Part shown: in pieces, positions 12,779-26,015 of the stretch
Layout of the letters: each line of letters starts with the position of its first letter
Position numbering within the stretch: the first letter of the stretch is position 1
Program-made: the position numbers and the translations under genes
Notes under the pieces: generated by a model
Told to the model about the DNA's origin: nothing
Seen by the model: the letters and a program-made list of their open reading frames with translations, nothing else
The model's database searches: none
DNA from: a virus
UHGV virus genome: UHGV-0147372
DNA length: 26,706 bases
Reading direction: 5' to 3' (one strand)

Positions 12779-13396
12779 TTACCAGTTAAAAATTGATGAG
12801 CTGCGAATTGCAGGAACATCCGATGGATTTCGTTTAGCAGCTGGTTCCATCAACTTACGCTTGTTAAATGCCTGATCAATATAATACTCAGGATTTTTAA
12901 TAAAGACAGAGTATTTTACCAATGCACAATATACGTCAGAGTCATTATAATGGGGAACTGTTTTTTCATAAACATGATTCTTTCTAACCAGATAAGGCAA
13001 ATAATAATCATATCCCCAACCTGGCGTTCTTAGACTTATAGAACATCCGCATGATGGATCTGCACATACTGCAGGAGTAAACACACTGTCGTAAATTTCA
13101 TCTCTGATAACACCAATTAGACCATTATAGTTTTCTCCCCAGAGTGATGCTTGAATTTCAGAGTTTATAAATGGACGATTTTTGGTTTCCGTTCCAATAA
13201 GAACGACAGTAACCGTTGAGTCTTTTAAAAAATCCTCACGAATAGTCCTCATTATTGTTTCATCAGTGTTAGTTGTACTAATGTCACCATCACTTACCGA
13301 CTTATCAATAAACGATTCTCCTCCGAATAAATCAATAATCTCATCTTTGAGATCTTGTTCGTTAGCATGATGATAACTAAGAAACGTCTTATGCAT
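12779..13396 (-). CDS. TIR-like (ThsB/DUF1863-like) protein, candidate NAD-processing signalling enzyme
   Basis: 205 aa; N-terminus KTFLSYHHANEQD resembles the TIR beta-A strand (FISYxHxD); block TVTVVLIGTETKNRPFINSEI resembles the ThsB/TIR beta-C/alpha-C region with the catalytic Glu; AT-rich; identification from memory of motifs, not a search. Confidence 0.5.
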   Translation of the reverse strand: MHKTFLSYHHANEQDLKDEIIDLFGGESFIDKSVSDGDISTTNTDETIMRTIREDFLKDSTVTVVLIGTETKNRPFINSEIQASLWGENYNGLIGVIRDEIYDSVFTPAVCADPSCGCSISLRTPGWGYDYYLPYLVRKNHVYEKTVPHYNDSDVYCALVKYSVFIKNPEYYIDQAFNKRKLMEPAAKRNPSDVPAIRSSSIFNW

Positions 13397-14127
13397 TATT
13401 CACTCCATTTATCAACATTTATATCAAACTCTTTGACTACCTTATCATTGAAGAAATCGTTTACTTCTTTAAAACCTTCCAATACTTGACTAAAATGATA
13501 ATAATGCTTTTGTATAGTACTTATAGGGGTTAAATGATACGGCAGTGATATAAATTCGCCGTTAGGGTCTCTATCCTTTGTGGTCACTTTATCATTATCT
13601 GAAACATATTTATGCCATCTCCGATAATTATTTTGATGCTTTGTTAAAAAAGAGTTTAACGTTTTCAAAATTTCATTTGAAAGTAAATACAGTTTTTTAT
13701 CTCTTTTTTTCTTCACATCTAGTAATTTCATTTCATCTCTAATGAATTTATAGCACTCATAATATGAGTTTAAAACTTCTTCAATTGAGTCATAATTCGG
13801 ATCAAATTTAAATAATGTTCGCTTCGTATCCAGATAATTTTTTACGCTCTTTTTAAAAAGAAGATCAGACTTATTTAGTAAAATATTAATACCACCAAAA
13901 CTAAGTTGCTCCAATCTCAATGAATATCTTTGATGAAATGCACCGACCAGCAAGATATAAGCAACTAAAAATAGTATTAATACTGATAGAAAAGCACGAA
14001 TTATGCTTACATTTGACATGAAATTAACTATAAACCACCATTTTTCAAACGGTGAAAACGGAATGCACCCCATGATAATAAGTAGAAGAACAAAGATACA
14101 ACCCCATAAAACCCACAATCTGTACAT
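13396..14127 (-). CDS. Hypothetical membrane protein (2-3 N-terminal TM helices plus a roughly 170 aa Lys/Tyr-rich soluble domain); candidate effector
   Basis: ORF track begins at a TTG at 14172 that lies inside the predicted promoter; ATG at 14127 (MYRLWVLWG...) with AAGGA upstream is preferred; stop overlaps the TIR-like start by 1 nt. Confidence 0.6.
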   Translation of the reverse strand: MYRLWVLWGCIFVLLLIIMGCIPFSPFEKWWFIVNFMSNVSIIRAFLSVLILFLVAYILLVGAFHQRYSLRLEQLSFGGINILLNKSDLLFKKSVKNYLDTKRTLFKFDPNYDSIEEVLNSYYECYKFIRDEMKLLDVKKKRDKKLYLLSNEILKTLNSFLTKHQNNYRRWHKYVSDNDKVTTKDRDPNGEFISLPYHLTPISTIQKHYYHFSQVLEGFKEVNDFFNDKVVKEFDINVDKWSE

Positions 14128-14149
14128 AAGAAAGATCCTTTTTCTTTTT

Positions 14150-14177
14150 ATAATACTGCAACTACACCTCAAGTCAA
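14150..14177 (-). promoter_or_regulatory. Candidate sigma70 promoter for the membrane-protein/TIR-like operon
   Basis: Minus-strand TTGACT (14177..14172), 16 bp spacer, TATTAT (14155..14150); about 25-45 bp upstream of the ATG at 14127. Confidence 0.35.
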
Positions 14178-14279
14178 AACCCTCTTCTGATATTACCCTC
14201 TACTACAGTAACCCATCACATGACCTCCGACTTATCAGAAGACTAGCCAAACTTTCTCAATCAAATCAGGTTGCGCGCG

Positions 14280-14298
14280 CTCGTATCCCCGCCACGCC
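14280..14298 (-). other. Candidate cos cohesive-end sequence (GGCGTGGCGGGGATACGAG on the minus strand)
   Basis: 14 of 19 positions, and 12 of the first 13, match the P2 cohesive end GGCGAGGCGGGGAAAGCAC as recalled; orientation relative to Q matches P2; a GC-rich island in AT-rich surroundings; adjacent hairpin CCCGCCA-attc-TGGCGGG at 14349..14366. Confidence 0.4.
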
Positions 14299-14415
14299 TG
14301 CCCGCTTTATGTAGTAGTTTTCATGCAGGTGCATGATCTACGCGAAAGCCCGCCAATTCTGGCGGGCCCTAGCAAAAACGATCCTCAAACGATCATGCGA
14401 TCTCATGCAGCATAG

Positions 14416-15258
14416 TCATGCACGATCATTTGACTCAGCATCTGCTGCACGCTTGCTGCGCGAAGATGCACTTTTACTATCAATCTTTCGACAGTTCTTT
14501 CTATCCCTGGCTTCATTTTCTTTAAATTTGTTATATGTCTCAGTATCAAAAAACGAAATTGTTTCAACCTCATCTTTTGGTATGAGCACACGGAAATCTT
14601 CGATATTAAGCCGAGACATTCCACTTATCACACCACTATCAAGATAATGTTGGTGATAGTTAGTCGTGATACTAATCGTTAGATCATCTTTATCCCGATA
14701 TCCGCTTAACATCGGGAGAAGTTCAAGGTGCTCTGAAAGCCCGTTTTCTAACGCCGGACAAGTAACAAGACCAACATAGATTTTGCGAGACGACAGAGTT
14801 GCTATGATCGGAAACTGTCTTGCGGACGCTTCCATGAGTAATGATTCGAAAGCGTTATTACCCACAGCTTTAGCTAAGGCATCCCAGCGACGATCTCCAC
14901 GTGATGTGCGTAACTTATTTCCAAAACCTGAAATCGCAGCGAGGACAATTGAAATCATAACCCATGCTATCTGTTTGATTTCATTTATTCTTTGAAGTTT
15001 GTCTTTCGATGAAGACAACATGCCATTAAAACTGTCAGGTGTTAGATTCAAGGCATTAGCCAGCCAACGAAACCCTCCGCTGACGTTCAAAATAAAGGTG
15101 AAAAAACCGCCAAGGAGAAAAAAAACGATACCCCAGGCAGCCACAAAAAAATAAGCGTCCCAGCCGTTGGAACGCTTATATCGGTATCTTGTTGAAAGTG
15201 ATAGGTTTACATAAATAAAACCACTAACCAAAATCACTGCTAAAAGTAATGTTGCCAT
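14416..15258 (-). CDS. Hypothetical membrane protein (three predicted N-terminal TM helices plus soluble C-terminal domain)
   Basis: 280 aa ORF; hydrophobic segments at about aa 3-20, 35-56 and 100-118; start overlaps the stop of the upstream 71 aa gene by 1 nt. Confidence 0.6.
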   Translation of the reverse strand: MATLLLAVILVSGFIYVNLSLSTRYRYKRSNGWDAYFFVAAWGIVFFLLGGFFTFILNVSGGFRWLANALNLTPDSFNGMLSSSKDKLQRINEIKQIAWVMISIVLAAISGFGNKLRTSRGDRRWDALAKAVGNNAFESLLMEASARQFPIIATLSSRKIYVGLVTCPALENGLSEHLELLPMLSGYRDKDDLTISITTNYHQHYLDSGVISGMSRLNIEDFRVLIPKDEVETISFFDTETYNKFKENEARDRKNCRKIDSKSASSRSKRAADAESNDRA

Positions 15259-15988: not shown

Positions 15989-16177
15989 TCAACTGATGAC
16001 ATCCATTGAGCGGTTGTATTCGTGTGTTCTGATTTTTGCCATGAGTTCATCTGTTAGTTCAGAAACCCACTGCAAAGCCAGCCCCTTCTCTTCATCACTA
16101 CACTCACTAGCCGCTACAAGCTTAAGAAAAAAATCAATGCGCTGGAGCTTCAAAGACTCCAAAAAATAGTCCTGCAT
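15989..16177 (-). CDS. Hypothetical protein (62 aa), first gene of the LexA-boxed operon
   Basis: ATG at 16177 with AGGAGG 4-5 nt upstream; 11 nt gap and different frame from the DinI-like gene, which has its own GGTGA SD. Confidence 0.5.
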   Translation of the reverse strand: MQDYFLESLKLQRIDFFLKLVAASECSDEEKGLALQWVSELTDELMAKIRTHEYNRSMDVIS

Positions 16178-16201
16178 CTTTCCTCCTATGACACCAAAGC
16201 A

Positions 16202-16237
16202 ATACTGTAAATATAACCACTGTTTATATTTACAGTA
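16202..16237. promoter_or_regulatory. LexA operator: canonical SOS box CTGTTTATATTTACAG (16220..16235) within a longer dyad, overlapping a second half-matching box CTGTAAATATAACCAC
   Basis: CTGT-N8-ACAG read directly; inverted repeat ATACTGTAAATATA / TATATTTACAGTAT flanking it; sits 43-60 bp upstream of the 62 aa gene start, overlapping likely -10 elements. Confidence 0.65.
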
Positions 16238-16250
16238 TATAATAATCTTA

Positions 16251-16281
16251 CTGATGTAAAACGTTTTTTTACGTTCATCAG
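16251..16281 (-). terminator. Candidate hairpin terminator after gene A (CTGATG...CATCAG around an AAAACGTTTT core)
   Basis: Inverted repeat read directly, located between the A stop and the LexA box; stem imperfect, so weak. Confidence 0.25.
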
Positions 16282-16329
16282 CCTGATATGCCTGGTATTA
16301 TTAAGAGCACGAATTGTTAACCCGCGTAA

Positions 16330-18702
16330 TTAATACAGGTTTCGCCACTTATCATCTTCCTGCAAACGCTGGTTCCGATAGAAGATACGCAGGCCTGCTC
16401 CTGACGGAATACTGCCGCCGCGAAGGAGTAAATCGACCTCTTTCTCGCTACCATCAAATCCTCTGGACTTCAGCTCATAGACGAGCTGCTGTCGCTGATG
16501 GTCTGTAATTCGCTGTTTGTAGTCTTTACGCCGTTTCGGTTTAACCAGGCGTAACCTTGCTGCCAGTTCCCGGCGCTCTTTTTTGCTCATACTGTGCAGG
16601 TAATCGTGCAACTGCTTGTCATCCATGCGGGTAATGTCCGTTCTGGTGCCCCCATCAGCTGATTTATCTTTCTCCTGTTGGTTCAAATTTTCAGCAAGGG
16701 GACAGTTATTGCCACGAGTCCAAGGGGCGCAAGCGCCCTGGTCGGCTGCCGCCTCCTGAACGTCAACGGCCTTACGAACCATTTTCCACTTCACGGCATG
16801 AGTGCAGATCTTGCCCTCTGCAATAGGTGACCAGATGCCATAAATACGAATGCCGTGATCGCCATAGGCGGTCGGCTCTTCGTTGATTTCATAAGCAGTT
16901 CTGATGAGGTGATATTTGCGGGGAACCAGTACGCCACCCTGCTTCATGATGTAGGTGGCAAAACAACCAGCATCAGCAGCAGCCAGAATGGCATCAAGGC
17001 GCGGGTTATCCAGTACCGGCGCACCTGCTTTTTTGTCCCCCTGTTGCCTTGCCGCCTGACCAGCCAGCAATCGCAGTTCACGGTAAGCCTGACGCCCCGG
17101 AATGCCAAAGAAGCGGAATTGCTGAACACGATGCAGAGACGCCCAAGCATTAACGTATTCAGCATTATCACGCAGGGATTTCCCCGTTTCCTTGCTGATC
17201 TCGCCAGCCAGACCACGCCCGTCAATGTTCTTACTGATGTATTTCGCGATGTAGCTTGTTGGCGTACCTTTGCGCGGGTTAATCAACTCAGACTTAAAGC
17301 GCGGCCCAGTGTTATTGCCCAGCTCCTCGCGGTCTTCACGGATGGCAAACTTACGCAGTAATGCAGTGATGGTGCGGCGGTCTTTTTTGCGCATAAAACA
17401 CAACAGGTGCCAGTGAACTGTACCGTCATGATGCGGCTCAGCCACCCGCACGCCATACCACCGCAATCCGGCTTTGTGCATCGCCTTACGAAATGCAGCA
17501 AACATGCCGACCAGATAATCACTGCTTTGTCTTACCGTCGCATTTGTCCAGGTTGGGTTGGGCCTGCCGTTATTTAGCGTGGAATGGAAACGTGACGGAC
17601 AGGTGATGGTGTAGAAAACGGCGCAGTCACCGCGCATTTCCGCGATAAGCTCCAGACCTTTAACACAGGCCATCATCTCATTGCGGCGATGCGCAGGGTT
17701 GCTGCTGCTGGCGTTTACCACATCCTCCATGTCCAGCGTGTCGCCGTCTTCGTTCACCAGTTCATGAGAACGGAAAAACTCCAGCGACTTACGGCGCTGC
17801 TCACGTTTATGCATCACGGCTTCATAGCTGACATAGGGAGATGCTTTTTTGCTGACCAGGCAAACAGCACGCAACTGCTCTTCCCGCCATTCGCAACGCA
17901 TCTTCCATAATTTCCGGTACCACCAGTCGGCGCACAACATACGCGCCAGCGAACCCGGAATGAGTTCATAGGGCACGGGTTTACGGCGGTTTCTTTTCCG
18001 GCGGAGTTGCTCAAACGCAGGCGGTATGACATCCAGTCGCAGGGTTTCTGCTGCCACCTTTTCCCATGTCTTGCGGATTTCTTCTGGCTTAACGTCATCG
18101 GTGGCATACAAATCGCCACAAGCTGCATCAAGGCACATGCTCATATGCGCAGCAACAAGGGTGGACAGGCGTTTCACCTGATCCTGACTCATTTCAGGCA
18201 GAATCAGCAGGCCGTCCAGCCCTTCATGGCTTGCCATAAAGCGAAAAGAAGTGGATAGCTGACTGTCGCGCACATGCTCCAGCCGTTCCAGACATGGCTT
18301 AATCGTCTCACGCAAATAGCGGGAATAAGCCTTTGGCCTGCCAAGGCTGCTGAAGTATTCAATACGTTGCATCAGCGGCTTGCTGATATGGGAAGGCTGG
18401 GCATTGACGTCCGCCAGAATGACCATATCTGGATTAAAACGCTGCTGCTCATGCGCCAGCTTTGCCCGACTAATGAGCTTATCCTGCTCCATTTCGCGCT
18501 GGACAGGATCACGGGATTCATTAAAGAAATAACGCTCCCAGACCTGATCACTCAGTACCTCGCGGCGCAGGTGTTCCTGCTCGTTATCGGCAGCGTACAG
18601 AGCGATCAGGTTTGAAAGCGCAGAAACTGAAGATTGCTCTTCTGTCTCTACGTAAGGATTGATTGCTTTTTTCTCAGCATTCCAGGAATAGCTGTAGTTC
18701 AT
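16330..18702 (-). CDS. A: Replication initiation endonuclease gpA (rolling-circle initiator)
   Basis: 790 aa; P2/186 gene A size class and position at the end of the early operon. Confidence 0.88.
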
Positions 18703-19532
18703 TACGCAATCTCCAGTTCGAGCTGTGAAGGCTGCAAACCATTCGACAGCCAGTCAGAAACTGAAGGTGGGCGAACAGCTTCAATTGCACCTTTTAAAAT
18801 TGCGCAACGGTTTTTCAGAATGACAGCTTTCAGCTCCTTTTCCGTCAGATTGCGCGAATACTCAGCCTCCTGAATAGCCCGCGTAAGCTCAGGATATTTG
18901 CTATTAAATTTGGGGACATTGCAGGCAAGATTTGTACTGTCGGCAGTCGCCAGTGGGTAATTTCCCAACACACGACCGTCAAGCATGCGCAAACCATGAA
19001 CAGCTGTTTTGAAATTGTGTCGGCAATAAATTGCTTCAAAAGCGTCCTGCATACGACGATGCCAGTGCGCAGTTCTAATAGCCGCATATTCACCAGACGA
19101 TCCAAAGCAGACACGAGGCCATTCACGACATAGCTCGATAAGCCGATCGATTGACTCGTGCAGATGCCAGACGGGAGTTGCCTTCCCGTAGAACATTTTC
19201 GGAACTTCGTTTATCAGGGCATCATTGTCACGTTCACCTCCGTCCACAACATCAGGAATGACAAAAAAAGCGACCTTAGGATGGTAGTAATAGTTCAGGA
19301 GCCATTTATAAAAATCATTCCAGTTAATTTTTAGCCCACGCACCCATGCAGAAAATGCGCCGTTATCAATGCCAACGACCTGGGCGTGCTGAATGGACGC
19401 CGCAATCTGATCTGGTCGTACATAGGAGACGAAAGCACCAGCTCCGCTCACCGCAATACGATGAACGTCGCCAGCACTTCCCCAGACAGGCGTCCCATGG
19501 AAATGATGAATTCCGTGGTGCATTTCTTTCAC
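18702..19532 (-). CDS. TGT-fold (DpdA-like DNA transglycosylase) candidate; otherwise hypothetical
   Basis: 276 aa; motifs VGIDNGAFS (compare TGT LTDSGGFQ), FFVIPDVVD (compare IVMIFDEC) and FGSSGE (compare VGGLAVGE) in TGT order, with no zinc-binding C-terminus; ATGA overlap with Dam upstream and TAATG overlap with A downstream. Confidence 0.35.
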
Positions 19533-20383
19533 ACTTGCACCCCGAAAATAACAGTAGAGTCACGTCCCCTACTAAAATCGGCACTAAACCAATTAGCAGA
19601 TTTAGTGGCAATCATCTCTGTTGCAAATTTTCCCTCCCCCGCTGCAACGCCGATGCTGCGTTTCGCCCTGATGTAGTGGTGAGTGAAATTACGATAAAGA
19701 GACCGGGTCAAAGACGTGTCACTGTTAGAAACAATGACCGGATGTCCTTCAGATGCTCGATGTTCAAGAACGGATGCCAGGTGATACTGGTCATCTTCAG
19801 TGAAACCATCAGTGTGATAGCCGGAAAACGTACCGTCATACGGCGGATCGCAATACACCACATCCCCCGCCTTCAACATCGCCAGCGTTTCATCAAAGCT
19901 GGCGCAGATAAACGTTGCTCGCTGGGCCTTTTCTGCAAATGCGCGAATTTCTTTTTCAGGGAAATACGGATTTTTATAATTACCGTAGGGAATGTTGAAA
20001 TGCCCGCTCTTGTTATAGCGACATAAACCACGGTAACCGTGACGATTGAGATACAGGAAATATACCGCTCTCATGAAATCAGTAATTTCAGTTGAGTAAT
20101 TAAACTCCTGCCTTATGTTGTAATAAGCCACCTCCCTGTTTGCGATCTCAAATAAAACTCTGGCGCGAGATATAAACGATTCACAATCAGCGGCAACCTT
20201 TTTATAGAGGTTGATTAAATCAGGATTAATATCCGCAACCAGATAGCTGGGATAATCCGTCTCCATCATCACAGCACAGGAACCCGCGAAAGGTTCAACC
20301 AGTCGCGGGCCAGCAGGAAGATGTTTTTTCAGTTCGGACATTATGGCAGTTTTATTTCCCGCCCATTTCAGGATGGTGCTCAT
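19529..20383 (-). CDS. dam: DNA adenine methyltransferase (Dam family)
   Basis: Start moved to the ATG at 20383 ([11 protein letters not shown]...); motif [11 protein letters not shown] and motif IV DPPY present; ATGA overlap with the TraR-like gene. Confidence 0.85.
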
Positions 20384-20607
20384 ACAGCACCTCCGTTGTA
20401 ATGTTTGCCTTTCAGCTCTGCGATTTCCTGACAGGTAATGCAAAGTTGCACACCCGGAATGGCACGGCGGCGTGCTGGCGGAATTGGCGCTTCACACTCA
20501 ACGCAAAGCACGCGGGACACTCCCGGCGTTTTGGCACGGGCAGCACGGATATGACGCTGGCGTTCTTCTTCAACTCGCTGCTGTACGAGATCCATTGCAT
20601 CAGCCAT
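20380..20607 (-). CDS. TraR/DksA-family C4 zinc-finger protein (P2 orf82-like)
   Basis: 75 aa with CVECEAPIP...CITCQ four-cysteine motif. Confidence 0.8.
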   Translation of the reverse strand: MADAMDLVQQRVEEERQRHIRAARAKTPGVSRVLCVECEAPIPPARRRAIPGVQLCITCQEIAELKGKHYNGGAV

Positions 20608-20846
20608 CAGTGGATCTCCTGCGCTTCGTTCTGGATTGCTTCAGCAGTCACACGCAGCAGTTCTGCCGCTTCGACGTGGTTTAACTGGCGGGATGTGATA
20701 TGACACGCCAGGCGATCAAGGCGAGCTGCCATTGCTTCAGCCCTTGCCCGGCGTTCTTCCAGACGAGCCTCTGTCAGTAAAATATTAAGCCCTGCGTCAT
20801 CCGGTCCGGTTTTAGTCGTGAGGGTTTCAATATTACGCATAATCAA
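20607..20846 (-). CDS. Hypothetical early protein (P2 orf81 position)
   Basis: 79 aa ORF in the early operon; 1 nt overlap with the downstream gene. Confidence 0.55.
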   Translation of the reverse strand: MIMRNIETLTTKTGPDDAGLNILLTEARLEERRARAEAMAARLDRLACHITSRQLNHVEAAELLRVTAEAIQNEAQEIH

Positions 20847-20907
20847 TTCTCCTGAATTTAGATAAAGGGATGCCCGGCGGGTTTACGCCATTAATTTCAT
20901 TAGTTGG

Positions 20908-21249
20908 TTAATTCGGCATGGTTAGCCGTCTGGGAAATAAGCTCACCACTGCACGAAAATGATTCATTGCTTTAATCAGCTCCCGCTTTTCGTCAGTGGT
21001 CAGCTCATTAATGCTGATGCTATGACGTTCAGCCGGAATTTTTGCCATAAAGAATATAGCAGCCAGTGCCCGTTTATTTTGTTCATTATTGATATCCCGT
21101 GGATCACGCATATCTTTAATAAACCGCTCAAGCTCTGACTCAATATTCAGGCCAAAAACTTTCGCCCTTAATTCCGCTATGTGATTAAGTCCACTCAGGC
21201 GTTCACCGGGGCTTAATGGAACAGTCGCCGCAGCGCCTTCAATAGCCAT
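20908..21249 (-). CDS. Hypothetical early protein (P2 orf80 position)
   Basis: 113 aa ORF in the early operon. Confidence 0.55.
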   Translation of the reverse strand: MAIEGAAATVPLSPGERLSGLNHIAELRAKVFGLNIESELERFIKDMRDPRDINNEQNKRALAAIFFMAKIPAERHSISINELTTDEKRELIKAMNHFRAVVSLFPRRLTMPN

Positions 21250-21413
21250 TTGTTCCCCCTTTTTTTCGTAGATAGTTCTGCCAGCAATTCATCTTGTGAA
21301 CGGCACGGATGCCAGCGTTTACCATCCTCCCCCATGATCCAGCCGTGACCGTAGTGCATTGCCGGACTTTGTTTTACCAGCAGCGATGCAAATGATGGTT
21401 CTTTAGTAAGCAT
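21213..21413 (-). CDS. Hypothetical small early protein (Fil/Dhr position of 186)
   Basis: Start set to the ATG at 21413 (MLTKEPSF...), which has a GAGGTG SD 4-5 nt upstream; the longer ORF-track start would overlap the cII 3' end. Confidence 0.5.
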   Translation of the reverse strand: MLTKEPSFASLLVKQSPAMHYGHGWIMGEDGKRWHPCRSQDELLAELSTKKRGNKWLLKALRRLFH

Positions 21414-21420
21414 AAGCACC

Positions 21421-21930
21421 TCACAGCAAACCGAATGAAGCACCGAGGCCAGTCACGGTATCAACTGCACTCGCCATCGCAGGATTAGCCTGTAAACGGG
21501 CCTGCAATGAAACAGCCGCCAGCGCCATCAGTCGTGTTACAGAGTTAATGCTGCTGATAGCATCACGACGACCTGCACTGGTTTTTACATCGCCAGATAC
21601 CGCACCTGCAGCAACACGCCCGATCTCTGCGGTTGCACTCATGACGTAATGTGGCAGTTTCTCTTTTGCCACCTCATTAATCGGTACGCATGGCAGGCAG
21701 TGAATCTGAGCCAGAAAACCATCTACCAGCGTTGAATCTTCAGTCAGATCGGTAAGCAGCCAGATTTCTGGTGCGGTTAATAAATGAGGTTGAGCCGGGT
21801 TCAGCTTGTTCCGCAGAATCTGCACATTCATGCCAGCACGTTCTGCCAGTTGCACCAGGTTGTGGCGCAGCGCGAATGCACGACAGGCTTCATCAAAATG
21901 TGGATGTTTGGAAACTTGGTAATCAAACAT
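21421..21930 (-). CDS. cII: 186-type CII-like lysogeny establishment regulator
   Basis: 169 aa from the internal ATG at 21930; [24 protein letters not shown]... matches phage 186 CII N-terminus as recalled; same length as 186 CII. Confidence 0.7.
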
Positions 21931-21962
21931 AGTCGACACCCCTGATGTATCCCAAAATGGAA

Positions 21963-22184
21963 CTAGTTGAATACAACATTGCAATCAGTAAGTGCATCAA
22001 CGGTAAGAGCAGCAAGGTTGATCATTACCTTTTCTCTTTTCTTGTCTTTCCGAAGGCGATGACGAGGGATGCGACCATCAGCCAGCATATCGTTGATTGT
22101 GTCGATAGAAAGACCAGTAAGTTCGCTATAACGCTCAATTGTGACGTGCGGCGTATTCAGAGTTATTGAAATGTTAGGGGTCAT
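21963..22184 (-). CDS. apl: Apl/Cox-like excisionase and lytic-promoter repressor
   Basis: 73 aa from the ATG at 22184 ([24 protein letters not shown]...), AGGAGA SD 9 nt upstream; first gene of the early operon, divergent from cI. Confidence 0.65.
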
Positions 22185-22272
22185 GATGCAACATCTCCTA
22201 TTGGCTTGTGGTGAGCCGGTATTAATCGTGACGAAAACTTCACAAAACGGAGAATAGGTTCGCATAAAGAAT
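22185..22272. promoter_or_regulatory. Lysis/lysogeny switch region between apl and cI (expected promoters and operators)
   Basis: 88 bp intergenic region between divergently oriented apl and cI; candidate minus-strand TTGTGA -35; operators not resolved by eye. Confidence 0.4.
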
Positions 22273-23214
22273 ATGTCAACTAATAAAATCACATTTCGCC
22301 ATATTGAAGATCATCTGAAAGCCATGGTCATGCAGAATCGAGGAGGGCAAAAAGTCATTGAGAGAATACTCATGGCCTATGGTTTCAAATCACGCCAAGC
22401 ATTCTGTAACCACCTTGGTATTTCACAAAGTACAATGGCTAACAGATATGCACGCGATACCTTCCCTGCTGATTGGGTTGTTATATGTTCAATGGAAACT
22501 GGCGCATCAATCGAATGGTTAGCATTTGGTTTAGATGCTGAAGAAGGAGTGCCAGCTCCTTCGCCAGAACGGCATGCTGAAAAACAGTCTGCAGATGAAT
22601 TTTGCAATGAAGTTCACACCCCCACGATAAAGTTCGATAATGAAAACCACATGGATTTCACTCGAGGGGGTAAAGCAGCAATAGAGCGAATTGTTAAGGC
22701 TTACGGTTACAAAACGCGCCAAGCCTTAGCCGATCACCTTGGTATCTCAAAAAGCACATTAGCTACACGATACATGCGAGACATTTTTCCGGCAGACTGG
22801 ATCATCCAATGCTGTTTAGAAACAGGAGTGTCTCTCGAGTGGTTATCTTTTGGTAAGGGGCATTCCAATCAAACAAAGCTAAGTGGGTTGCTTACATTAG
22901 ACTGCTATGATCTACGTGACGGCAAACTTACTGATCAAAGAGAATTAATCGTTTCGAGCGAAATTTTACCTCAAAATTTAAAACATCCCTATATAGTTAA
23001 TTCCGCAAATGATTCATATATCATTAGCAAAGAGGAGTATCTTAGCGATGGTCTATGGTTAGTATCTATTAACGGAGAATTTACTTTTAGAGACATATTT
23101 AAACTTCCAAACAATCGCATCCGCGTTGAAAACACAAAATATAGCTTTGAATGCGATAAAGAAGATTTGGAATTTAATAATAAAGTTAAAGGAATAATTA
23201 GAAAAAGGGTTTAA
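22273..23214 (+). CDS. cI: CI-type immunity repressor with tandemly duplicated N-terminal DNA-binding domain
   Basis: 313 aa; two roughly 60 aa copies (KVIERILMAYGFKSRQAFCNHLGISQSTMANRYARDTFPADWVVICSMETGASIEWLAFG and AAIERIVKAYGYKTRQALADHLGISKSTLATRYMRDIFPADWIIQCCLETGVSLEWLSFG) resembling the 186 CI N-terminal domain, then a C-terminal domain. Confidence 0.75.
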   Translation: MSTNKITFRHIEDHLKAMVMQNRGGQKVIERILMAYGFKSRQAFCNHLGISQSTMANRYARDTFPADWVVICSMETGASIEWLAFGLDAEEGVPAPSPERHAEKQSADEFCNEVHTPTIKFDNENHMDFTRGGKAAIERIVKAYGYKTRQALADHLGISKSTLATRYMRDIFPADWIIQCCLETGVSLEWLSFGKGHSNQTKLSGLLTLDCYDLRDGKLTDQRELIVSSEILPQNLKHPYIVNSANDSYIISKEEYLSDGLWLVSINGEFTFRDIFKLPNNRIRVENTKYSFECDKEDLEFNNKVKGIIRKRV

Positions 23215-23216
23215 CA

Positions 23217-24266
23217 ATGAGCTTTACGAAAACTATTGAATTTGCAAACTATACCTTAAATTTTGGAGAGGACAAAGTTCTCTTAGATGCTTTTGATTGC
23301 ATTGTTTTTCCTTCATTTTTCGCACAAAAATACGTTAGAAAATTTAAAGATACAGAATATTTCTTTACTGACACAAAAATTATTACGTTAGATACTACAG
23401 ATTCAGATTTTATTGGTCCTATAGTTCCAACAATTGCATTGTGTGGCCGCATTATAAAAAAGACCATATTTAAACGAGATCAAATATTTCAAGATGGTCA
23501 ATTAATTCGAGATCACAGGACGCTAGAAAGTCACCCCAGCTCTATTTTTATTCTTATGCTTAATGAGCACAGATTAATGCTTTGCAAAGAGGTTTCTGGA
23601 GCCCCTACCCTAGAAGAATTTGAAAATACTAGCAAGTATTGCCTTGCACAGCGATATAATTCTTTTGTGGATTACGAAGTAAAAAAAAATAAAAGAATTA
23701 GAAAGAAAAAATCATACATTGATCGACTGTATAAAAAAGATATTTATCGTAAACTAGGAGCCCCCAAATTACGGGTTACCCCCTTAACAGACCCAAGATC
23801 ATTGAGCAATTTTGTTGAACTCTTTTCTGTTGTTAATAGATTATCAATTGAGTTATTGCCAACAAATAGTGAAAATATATCTCTTGATGGCTTCTGGAGG
23901 AAAATTGAACAAGAAAAAGAAGAACTTAATAGTAGTAAAGCTCAATTAGTATACACAAATAAAAATGAAGATGGTTTAAATTCTGAGGCCGTCATTCAAA
24001 AAACAACAAGTGCAACCCGAATGGCCAACTCTAAAGTAATTATAAGTGGTAAAGATGAACACGGAGCAAGGCTATCAGGGAATAATGATAGTTTTACTCT
24101 AAAAGCATCAAGGCCACAACTTAGTTCTGATTTGGAAAGAGCTGCTCAAGAGGCGTATTCTGCATTCACAGAATTAAAGGATGCAGGAAATATTATCATT
24201 CCAGAACGTGAAGATTATACTAAAATTTTTTCCAAGTTAACATCAATAATTTCTAGGTGGCTATAG
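23217..24266 (+). CDS. Hypothetical cytoplasmic protein (349 aa), AT-rich, co-transcribed with cI; RexA-like by position only
   Basis: Starts 2 nt after the cI stop; no recognisable motif; Lys/Asn-rich AT-biased composition. Confidence 0.6.
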   Translation: MSFTKTIEFANYTLNFGEDKVLLDAFDCIVFPSFFAQKYVRKFKDTEYFFTDTKIITLDTTDSDFIGPIVPTIALCGRIIKKTIFKRDQIFQDGQLIRDHRTLESHPSSIFILMLNEHRLMLCKEVSGAPTLEEFENTSKYCLAQRYNSFVDYEVKKNKRIRKKKSYIDRLYKKDIYRKLGAPKLRVTPLTDPRSLSNFVELFSVVNRLSIELLPTNSENISLDGFWRKIEQEKEELNSSKAQLVYTNKNEDGLNSEAVIQKTTSATRMANSKVIISGKDEHGARLSGNNDSFTLKASRPQLSSDLERAAQEAYSAFTELKDAGNIIIPEREDYTKIFSKLTSIISRWL

Positions 24267-24267
24267 T

Positions 24268-24873
24268 ATGAAATATACATTCAACCCAGAAGATCTGACC
24301 AAAGAGCGATCTTTGCATGATGTTTACAAATTAACTAAAAAAATAAAGGTCAATTCATTTGACTTTTATTTCACATTATTATTAGTGATATTATTATCTA
24401 TTAATGCTTTTTGTCTATCTTCATCACCAGAGTTAATTTCATCTATTAGACAATGGACACCTTTAGTATTCGGATTCACTACAACAACATTAGGTTTTTT
24501 AATTACTGGATTTACAATATTTGCAACCATAAATAAACCTGAACTTTTCCTTTCATTAATGGAGTATAAGCATCCATTATACGGGATAAGTTACTTAAAA
24601 TATGTTTATGGCGTATTTATGAGAGTATTTATATATTTCATATTTTGGTCTGTTATCTATCTTTTAGTCCTTCTTTTCGGGCAAGAAAATGGATTGGCTA
24701 CAAAATTACTCAGAGCCTTAATGTTTTCTCATTGCACTAAAGTTGTTGGAGTTCAAATACTATATATACTCGTAGGAAGCAGTGCAGTGTTCCTTGTATT
24801 AACTTTAAAAACTTTCCTGTTCAATATTTATGCTATGTTAATGCAATCTCTACGCTGGGAAGTAGAAAGATAA
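24268..24873 (+). CDS. Hypothetical polytopic membrane protein (201 aa, about 4-5 TM); RexB-like by architecture only
   Basis: Starts 1 nt after the stop of the upstream gene; several 20-residue hydrophobic segments. Confidence 0.62.
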   Translation: MKYTFNPEDLTKERSLHDVYKLTKKIKVNSFDFYFTLLLVILLSINAFCLSSSPELISSIRQWTPLVFGFTTTTLGFLITGFTIFATINKPELFLSLMEYKHPLYGISYLKYVYGVFMRVFIYFIFWSVIYLLVLLFGQENGLATKLLRALMFSHCTKVVGVQILYILVGSSAVFLVLTLKTFLFNIYAMLMQSLRWEVER

Positions 24874-24962
24874 AATTAACCTCAATGTATGAATCTCAAT
24901 TCATATACATTGACACTGGTTATACATACAGTAAAAATGCTCTCCACTGGAGGGCATTTTTT

Positions 24963-26015
24963 ATGGCAGTACGAAAACTCACCACAGGAAAATGGCTATG
25001 CGAATGTTACCCCGCGGGACGTAGTGGACGTCGTGTGCGTAAACAATTCGCCACCAAAGGTGAAGCTCTGGCTTTTGAGCGTCACACGATGGAAGAAACC
25101 GAAGCAAAGCCCTGGCTGGGTGAATCAGTGGATCGTCGAACACTGAAAGACGTGGTTGAGCTATGGTTCAAACTACATGGTAAATCTCTGACAGCTGGGC
25201 AGCATGTCTATGACAAATTGCTGTTGATAGTTGACGCTCTGGGCAATCCCCTTGCAACCGATCTCACCTCTAAAATGTTTGCCCACTATCGAGATAAACG
25301 CCTGACAGGAGAGATCTACTTCAGCGAAAAATGGAAGAAAGGAGCAAGCCCGGTCACCATTAACCTGGAGCAAAGCTATCTTAGTAGTGTTTTTAGCGAA
25401 CTATCCCGCCTGGGCGAATGGTCGTATCCGAACCCACTGGAGAACATGCGAAAATTCACCATCGCTGAAAAAGAGATGGCATGGCTTACCCATGAGCAGA
25501 TTGTTGAATTACTGGCTGATTGCAAACGTCAGGACCCAATTCTGGCACTGGTAGTTAAGATATGCTTAAGCACAGGCGCACGCTGGCGAGAAGCCGTAAA
25601 TCTTACTCGTTCACAGGTGACCAAATACCGAATTACCTTTGTAAGAACGAAGGGGAAGAAAAACAGAAGCATCCCTATCAGTAAAGAGCTTTACGAAGAG
25701 ATCATGGCGCTTGATGGGTTCAATTTCTTCACAGACTGCTATTTTCAATTTTTATCCGTGATGGAAAAAACGTCTATCGTGCTCCCTCGCGGTCAACTCA
25801 CACACGTTCTGCGCCATACGTTTGCGGCGCACTTCATGATGTCGGGTGGAAACATCCTGGCCTTACAAAAAATTCTCGGACATCACGATATAAAAATGAC
25901 GATGCGTTACGCACATCTGGCACCGGATCATCTGGAAACGGCGCTCCGTTTCAATCCTCTGGCAACGCTGCCAAGTGGCGACAAAGTGGCGGCAGCGGTT
26001 GGCATTACCCCGTAA
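24963..26015 (+). CDS. int: Tyrosine integrase (P2 Int family)
   Basis: Start set to the ATG at 24963 (MAVRKLTTGKWLCECYPAGRSGRRVRKQF...), aligning with the P2 Int N-terminus (MAIKKLDDGRYEVDIRPTGRNGKRIRRKF...); conserved LSTGARW.EA, HVLRHTFA and MRYAH boxes. Confidence 0.9.
   Translation: MAVRKLTTGKWLCECYPAGRSGRRVRKQFATKGEALAFERHTMEETEAKPWLGESVDRRTLKDVVELWFKLHGKSLTAGQHVYDKLLLIVDALGNPLATDLTSKMFAHYRDKRLTGEIYFSEKWKKGASPVTINLEQSYLSSVFSELSRLGEWSYPNPLENMRKFTIAEKEMAWLTHEQIVELLADCKRQDPILALVVKICLSTGARWREAVNLTRSQVTKYRITFVRTKGKKNRSIPISKELYEEIMALDGFNFFTDCYFQFLSVMEKTSIVLPRGQLTHVLRHTFAAHFMMSGGNILALQKILGHHDIKMTMRYAHLAPDHLETALRFNPLATLPSGDKVAAAVGITP

Follow-up and report, generated by a model that had tools for sequence, protein, structure and literature searches.

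Organization of the early operon

The DNA analyzed here, virus genome UHGV-0147372, is a stretch of 26,706 nucleotides (nt; called the window throughout) that covers most of a P2/186-like prophage of Escherichia coli, ∼27 kb of a prophage of roughly 33 kb. The terminase, portal, capsid and tail genes and those for CII, Fil, CI and integrase are arranged as in phage 186, and chromosomes of E. coli match the region 18300-20700 with 98.6% identity. The prophage is 186-like (Eganvirus-type), with E. coli as its host. We focused on an open reading frame (ORF) on the minus strand at 18702-19532. In our assessment, its product of 276 amino acids (aa) is probably a phage-type DpdA, that is, a DNA guanine transglycosylase of the tRNA-guanine transglycosylase (TGT) superfamily, which is made from the early lytic operon and uses a 7-deazaguanine derived from the host.

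An initial annotation of this DNA, made from the sequence without database searches, had placed the ORF, together with a Dam methyltransferase gene, between a TraR-like gene and replication gene A, and we confirmed these ORFs, which all lie on the minus strand. The dam gene (19529-20383, minus strand) encodes a Dam-family N6-adenine DNA methyltransferase of 284 aa. Replication gene A (16330-18702, minus strand) encodes gpA, the rolling-circle initiator nickase (PF05840, E = 1.1e-127; phrog_91, E = 5.6e-288). On the other side of dam, the same strand of the early operon carries a TraR/DksA-type zinc-finger gene (20380-20607; PF01258, E = 4.4e-11; TIGR02419, E = 1.5e-18), a DUF2732 gene (20607-20846) and a DUF5347 gene (20908-21249).

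The central genes of this block are tightly joined. The stop codon of the TraR-type gene overlaps the start of dam in an ATGA junction, and the stop codon of the dpdA-like ORF overlaps the start of gene A (TAATG). The junction between dam and the ORF is a GTGA overlap when translation starts at the GTG at 19532, giving 276 aa, and a 5-nt spacer when it starts at the ATG 9 nt downstream (19523), giving 273 aa. The ATG is the start chosen by PGAP for WP_001420002.1, the 273-aa protein that carries the RefSeq label 'hypothetical protein'.

A scan of 16000-22500 found one minus-strand sigma-70-like match, TTGACA-17-TATTCT at 22251-22279 (read from 22279 to 22251), which is a consensus match only and lies upstream of the whole block; the scan showed no minus-strand promoter-like site inside the operon. 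This site is likely to be the early lytic promoter driving the operon that contains dam and dpdA, a function that we presume from the gene order of 186 and P2. Since it is the single promoter-like site upstream of the whole block, dam and the dpdA-like ORF would both be carried on the early lytic transcript, which, by analogy with the biology of 186 and P2, would be repressed by CI. A defence role of the dpdA-like gene expressed in the lysogen was considered and rejected, because the gene sits in an early lytic operon that is repressed, and no promoter-like site was seen within that operon; published anti-deazaguanine glycosylases are not described as TGT-like (bioRxiv 10.1101/2025.10.29.685425).

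The 276-aa protein groups with phage DpdA proteins

Searches with the 276-aa ORF recovered 4297 homologues at E ≤ 0.001, all of them unnamed, which formed 550 clusters at 50% identity. The clusters were mostly 220-270 aa long and shared a conserved core corresponding to residues 10-207. Judged from these homologues, the ORF is a real, conserved and widespread gene.

The protein matched phrog_887, a family named 'queuine tRNA-ribosyltransferase', with an E-value of 1.6e-95. The same family also matched the DpdA proteins of phages CAjan (8.2e-96), 7-11 (7.1e-74) and MED16 (3e-70), as well as SEN1 gp38 (3.7e-94). A family profile built from 61 diverse relatives (27-59% identical) was aligned with CAjan DpdA by hhalign with a probability of 98.8% (E = 7.6e-17, 158 columns), and this alignment lined up the DxGAFS motif, H123, G144, H179 and D198-S199. 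Deletion of dpdA in CAjan abolishes dPreQ0 in the phage (PMC6884629). In pairwise searches (tblastn/BLASTP) the 276-aa protein was 75% identical to the DpdA homologues of the Salmonella P2-like phages SEN1 (gp38) and SI22; it was also 55% identical to the DpdA of Pantoea phage MED16 over 265 aa and 34% identical to that of Salmonella phage 7-11 over 96% of the query.

Predicted fold and conserved residues

The AlphaFold2 model of the protein (pLDDT 88.3, pTM 0.86) comprises an eight-stranded beta/alpha barrel followed by ∼70 residues of helices, so that the predicted fold corresponds to the TGT-like (beta/alpha)8 barrel. When the model was compared with structure models of viral proteins, the named matches at E < 1e-3 were phage 'queuine tRNA-ribosyltransferases', with the single exception of an ART-PolyVal-like domain protein at rank 30, the second-weakest among the 32 matches. 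Vibrio phage nt-1 R9TGF0, with an E-value of 1.2e-3, fell just short of this threshold. A Foldseek search of the PDB gave a mixture of pyruvate kinase, CitE, arcTGT and DpdA at E ∼7e-3, a weak result that we did not use as evidence.

Six residues, D56, D94, H123, H179, D198 and S199, are invariant across the 61 relatives, and G144 and L181-R182 are nearly so. Each of the conserved residues lies at the C-terminal end of a barrel strand in the model. The motifs VGIDNGAFS (53-61), FFVIPDVVD (89-97) and FGSSGE (143-148) are present in the order in which the initial annotation had listed them. In the bacterial DpdA, residues D95, D130, H181, G206-G207 and D256 have been described (PMC10164549). From position and spacing, D56 would correspond to D95, the general acid/base; D94 to D130, involved in base recognition; H123 to H181; the G144 loop to G206-G207 in the loop after strand 6; and D198 to D256, the nucleophile. 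D56 and D198 also align with Asp residues of CAjan DpdA, and H179 and D198 may resemble the H226/D248 pair of Cap10 (bioRxiv 10.1101/2025.04.06.647259).

No CxCxxC...H zinc motif was found in the 276-aa protein, and the zinc subdomain of bacterial DpdA and TGT is therefore absent. Strand 1 carries a HYHGTP motif that sets the present clade apart from CAjan and 9g. Taken together, the phrog_887 match, the profile alignment with CAjan DpdA and the barrel model bear out the original suggestion that a zinc-less, DpdA-like protein of the TGT superfamily is encoded in the replication operon.

The Dam methyltransferase and its relation to dpdA

The sequence of the neighboring enzyme identifies it unambiguously as a Dam-family methyltransferase. 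It matched the D12 methyltransferase family PF02086 (E = 4.3e-76, 256 bits), TIGR00571 (E = 8.1e-95, 317.5 bits, with a cut-off of 114.85) and the PADLOC orphan methyltransferase model (E = 2.8e-110), and is 47% identical to E. coli K-12 Dam. This identity includes the target-recognition block, where the two proteins share LNR.GY.GLCRYN..G.FN.P.G.YK.PYFPE; the enzyme would be expected to be specific for GATC. The family assignment and the DPPY motif (residues 179-182) agree with the initial reading; the AdoMet-binding motif I is FAGSC and not a literal FxGxG. The methyltransferase is an orphan: its surroundings contain no partner restriction gene.

We examined the arrangement of these genes in 89 related loci (9 genomes and 80 IMG/VR contigs); the search with alignment A1 gave only relatives of at least 58% identity. 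In 83 of the 89, dpdA is directly followed by a gpA-type replication gene, loci whose gpA shows only 29-38% identity included; TraR lies upstream of dpdA in most of them. A dam gene is directly adjacent to dpdA in 51 loci, which include nearly all relatives of at least 82% identity and a few others. Lineages of the SEN1 type carry dpdA without dam and have a 92-aa ORF in the dam position. Relatives of the gene are found in Enterobacter, Citrobacter, Klebsiella, Serratia, Salmonella and other Enterobacterales.

Among 5426 complete E. coli genomes, dam was present in 1239 and the dpdA-like gene in 107 (∼2%), where the ORF was intact in 105 with 95-99.5% identity. The usual E. coli arrangement is TraR-Dam-A, with dam overlapping A, and dpdA is a rarer cargo gene inserted exactly between the common resident dam and A. 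The two genes occur separately and assort independently, and the idea that Dam and DpdA form an obligate, co-evolved pair is contradicted by the genome counts and by the SEN1-type loci. They are stacked modules and not the functional pair implied by the initial annotation.

Two further observations were made on dam. In E. coli prophages with dam and no dpdA, the match to this dam ends at nucleotide 776 of 855, and the last ∼80 nt (19529-19610 in the window), encoding the C-terminus, are specific to the dpdA-containing variant and probably mark the recombination joint of the dpdA insertion. Separately, a 421-aa Dam::DpdA fusion ORF (P0011) consists of an N-terminal Dam part (PF02086) and a segment 99% identical to residues 48-276 of the DpdA-like protein. 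It was the only member of its cluster, and we set it aside as probably an assembly or deletion artefact.

Source of the modified base

No gene for FolE, QueD, QueE or QueC was detected in the window by tblastn with the CAjan proteins, the best hit being a chance match of 38 aa (E = 0.004). No que gene is listed in the annotation of the 98.6%-identical prophage of E. coli 573, and no que or folE homologue was found within 6 kb of the gene in the 89 related loci. The claim that preQ0 synthesis genes are missing from the window is thus upheld. Phages that encode DpdA and no FolE, QueD, QueE, QueC or amidotransferase form a third published group of 76 DpdA-only phages (PMC6884629), and the 276-aa protein, with the same gene content around it, is a member of this group.

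A use of the host queuosine pathway, as put forward in the initial annotation, has a precedent. When 9g DpdA was expressed alone in E. coli, host preQ0 was inserted into plasmid DNA at 790 dPreQ0 per 10^6 nt (PMC6884629), which makes it realistic that the phage would rely on the pathway of its host in this species. Within the DpdA-only group, 7-11 DNA contains 50 dADG per 10^6 nt (PMC6884629), and DNA of MED16, which encodes dpdA only, contains 354 dADG per 10^6 nt plus traces of dPreQ0 (PMC6884629, PMC8306585). The nearest relatives whose DNA has been analyzed carry very little modification, and this is dADG and not dPreQ0.

Comparison with known transglycosylases

The presence of DpdA homologues in P2-like phages is already in the literature. 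SEN1 gp38 and SW9 gp39, both from P2-like Salmonella phages, have been named as members of a 'DpdA/TGT_1' cluster (PMC8306585), and the family, its lack of que genes and its presence in SEN1 and SW9 have thus been published. In the literature that we searched, no paper tied DpdA to Peduoviridae beyond this mention. To this we add modest details: where exactly the gene is inserted between dam and A, how common it is in E. coli (∼2%), the clade signature HYHGTP and the helical C-terminal extension.

The gene for SEN1 gp38 has the corresponding place, where it directly precedes the replication gene and overlaps it, in a phage without preQ0 genes; SEN1 differs in having the 92-aa ORF instead of dam. 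The DpdA of phage vB_PagS_MED16 (gp38) belongs to the same PHROG, and that phage likewise has no preQ0 genes and encodes an adenine methyltransferase, its DNA containing m6A plus dADG. MED16, however, is a siphovirus in which dpdA lies away from a gpA gene and the methyltransferase is six genes off. Phage 7-11, a group 3 member (Hutinet et al., 2019) with an enterobacterial host, shares the PHROG and the absence of que genes, but is a virulent 90-kb phage whose DpdA lacks the ∼70-aa C-terminal helical extension of the 276-aa protein. The annotated start of the 234-aa 7-11 DpdA coding sequence (NC_015938, 30787-31560) seems to be too far downstream. In tblastn, residues 1-264 of our query align up to position 31560, ∼23 codons upstream of the annotated start. 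One would expect the conserved HYHG region of strand 1 in these additional codons.

The DpdA1 enzymes of CAjan and 9g (Queuovirinae) share the PHROG and the DxGAFS, His, Gly-loop, His and D-S motifs. They are active without a DpdB partner, and 9g can draw on host preQ0. In contrast to the present phage, CAjan and 9g encode their own FolE, QueD, QueE and QueC, and 25-32% of their G is replaced. The position of the second Asp differs by three residues, and the HYHGTP motif occurs only in the present clade. CAjan DpdA is beyond the reach of BLAST, being absent among 105 tblastn matches. The bacterial enzyme, DpdA from the Dpd restriction-modification island of S. Montevideo (PDB 7UI4), is 413 aa long, contains a CXCX2CX22H zinc site as well as insertions Ins1-3 and Ins8, and depends on the DpdB ATPase. 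The 276-aa protein has neither these insertions nor the zinc site, and only ∼70 aa follow strand 8. We found no PADLOC match to Dpd here and no ParB-like ATPase gene in the operon.

Evidence against the assignment and alternative explanations

Several observations weigh against our assignment of the protein as a DpdA. Pfam, NCBIfam and PADLOC scans of the protein gave no match, a Pfam scan of the 61 relatives gave none either, PF01702 (TGT) included, and phmmer and two profile HMM searches of PDB sequences yielded only chance coiled-coil matches. The family profile aligned with the single E. coli Tgt sequence at a probability of 1.5%, which is uninformative with a one-sequence template, and no sequence search ties the protein directly to TGT or to the bacterial DpdA. 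CAjan DpdA has Ser in the D94 column and an Asp at the D97 position, three residues off register. The DpdA-only relatives whose DNA has been analyzed show modification of 0.02-0.13% of G, with no knockout tying it to DpdA; MED16 DNA is minimally protected from restriction enzymes in vitro (PMC8306585); Mycobacterium phage Orion, also DpdA-only, has unmodified DNA (PMC6884629); and all chemically tested phages lie outside the P2-like clade. As regards the missing Pfam match, the DpdA proteins of CAjan, 7-11 and MED16 also have no Pfam TGT match, while E. coli Tgt itself scored 2.8e-168, and a missing match is therefore normal for phage DpdA proteins.

We weighed four other explanations, each of which we regard as less likely than a DpdA that modifies phage DNA with a host-derived base. 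The conserved placement of dpdA immediately upstream of even highly divergent gpA-type genes could indicate that the enzyme leaves a sparse, site-specific mark for replication or packaging, for example near the gpA nick site or cos, instead of modifying DNA in bulk against restriction. The ∼50-350 dADG per 10^6 nt in MED16 and 7-11 amount to a handful per genome and give little protection from restriction (PMC8306585, PMC6884629), which fits such a mark. We nevertheless think this unlikely, as cargo of other kinds (dam by itself, or the 92-aa ORF in SEN1) is also found between TraR/dam and A, so that the synteny may simply reflect an insertion hotspot, and homologues in MED16, 7-11 and P22-like phages lie away from a gpA gene. 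On the basis of the HYHGTP motif, the C-terminal helical extension and the strict placement before the rolling-circle initiator gene, there is a slim chance that the P2/186 clade of DpdA places a few 7-amido-7-deazaguanines at specific sites, possibly by direct insertion of ADG. These bases might serve as an epigenetic mark that is linked either to the replication driven by gpA or to the way in which related prophages tell self from non-self. It is similarly doubtful that the gene is a passenger, catalytically idle or in decay, that leaves phage DNA unaffected in E. coli. The DNA of Orion is unmodified although this phage encodes a DpdA, phiSM DpdA1 is inactive when expressed in E. coli (PMC10516641), and few E. 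coli genomes carry the gene; the Orion host, however, has no preQ0 pathway, whereas E. coli makes preQ0 (PMC6884629). The six invariant residues, three Asp among them, across relatives of 27-59% identity and the intact ORF in nearly all E. coli carriers are, moreover, a signature of purifying selection.

A minimal tRNA-guanine transglycosylase acting on host or phage tRNA and tuning translation in lytic growth would agree with the TGT-superfamily fold and with the label 'queuine tRNA-ribosyltransferase' that PHROG and several GenBank records give the family. These labels are inherited annotation and not experiment. tRNA TGTs have a zinc subdomain and an N-terminal tRNA-binding lid, both of which are absent from the 276-aa protein along with a PF01702 match, and 9g DpdA failed to complement an E. 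coli tgt deletion (PMC6884629), which makes a tRNA substrate very unlikely. We attach even less weight to a Cap10-like enzyme that acts on protein-conjugated 7-deazaguanine (deazaguanylation) and not on DNA. Cap10 of type IV CBASS (PDB 9NTN) works with Cap9, a QueC-like protein, and a CD-NTase on a protein-linked base, and the window and the related loci yielded no Cap9 or CD-NTase gene.

Proposed mechanism

We propose that, after induction or infection, the early operon would be transcribed as one unit, and that its tight junctions (ATGA; GTGA or a 5-nt gap; TAATG) would allow Dam, DpdA and gpA to be made together at the start of replication. By analogy with TGT and bacterial DpdA, D198 would act as the nucleophile, forming a covalent ribosyl-enzyme intermediate, and D56 as the general acid/base. 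The G144-S-S-G147 loop after strand 6 would hold the 7-substituent, while H179 would pair with D198, like H226 and D248 in Cap10. Selected guanines of the new phage DNA could in this way be swapped for a 7-deazaguanine from the host FolE-QueD-QueE-QueC pathway, the product being dPreQ0 and/or dADG, probably at low density. Dam would methylate GATC independently of DpdA.

The benefit to the phage is likely to be the evasion of some host nucleases. The anti-restriction strategy suggested in the initial annotation is plausible by analogy with CAjan and 9g; given the low dADG of MED16 and 7-11 and the minimal protection of MED16 DNA, it is unproven for the P2-like clade. As a counter-pressure there are defences that depend on such modification, GrwAB and Dag1 among them (PMC12137116; bioRxiv 10.1101/2025.10.29.685425), and pressure of this type might explain the patchy distribution of dpdA.

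Other genes in the window

Three minus-strand genes at 12779-15258 lie between the portal gene and gpA, an interval that we take to be the tin/old cargo hotspot of P2. One encodes a 205-aa ThsB-type TIR protein (PF08937, E = 1.5e-14; PADLOC ThsB, E = 3.4e-12) and adjoins ORFs at 13396-14172 (258 aa) and 14416-15258 (280 aa), both without family matches. No ThsA was detected near the TIR gene, and the three genes may be a non-canonical TIR-based defence module.

The CI repressor (22273-23214, plus strand) is 313 aa long, with two tandem Phage_CI_repr helix-turn-helix domains and a CI C-terminal domain. CI of the E. coli 573 prophage has ∼210 aa and a single helix-turn-helix, and the 313-aa CI looks like the result of a duplicated DNA-binding domain. 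Between CI and the integrase gene (24885-26015), ORFs of 349 and 201 aa without Pfam or PADLOC matches occupy 23217-24873 on the plus strand. They could be co-transcribed with CI in lysogens and are candidates for lysogeny-expressed cargo or defence genes.

Implications

WP_001420002.1, at present a 'hypothetical protein', could become a 'DpdA-like DNA guanine transglycosylase'. Should the enzyme prove active, 7-deazaguanine marks drawn wholly from the host queuosine precursor pool would be present in a common class of temperate coliphages, and deazaguanine modification of DNA would extend from virulent phages to easily engineered prophages of the P2/186 type. Such a prophage would be a handy genetic system, since E. 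coli queC, queD and queF mutants exist. The identity of the inserted base in DpdA-only phages, the origin of dADG without DpdC and the target sites could all be addressed with it, as could the question of whether sparse marks protect the phage from restriction or expose it to GrwAB and Dag1.

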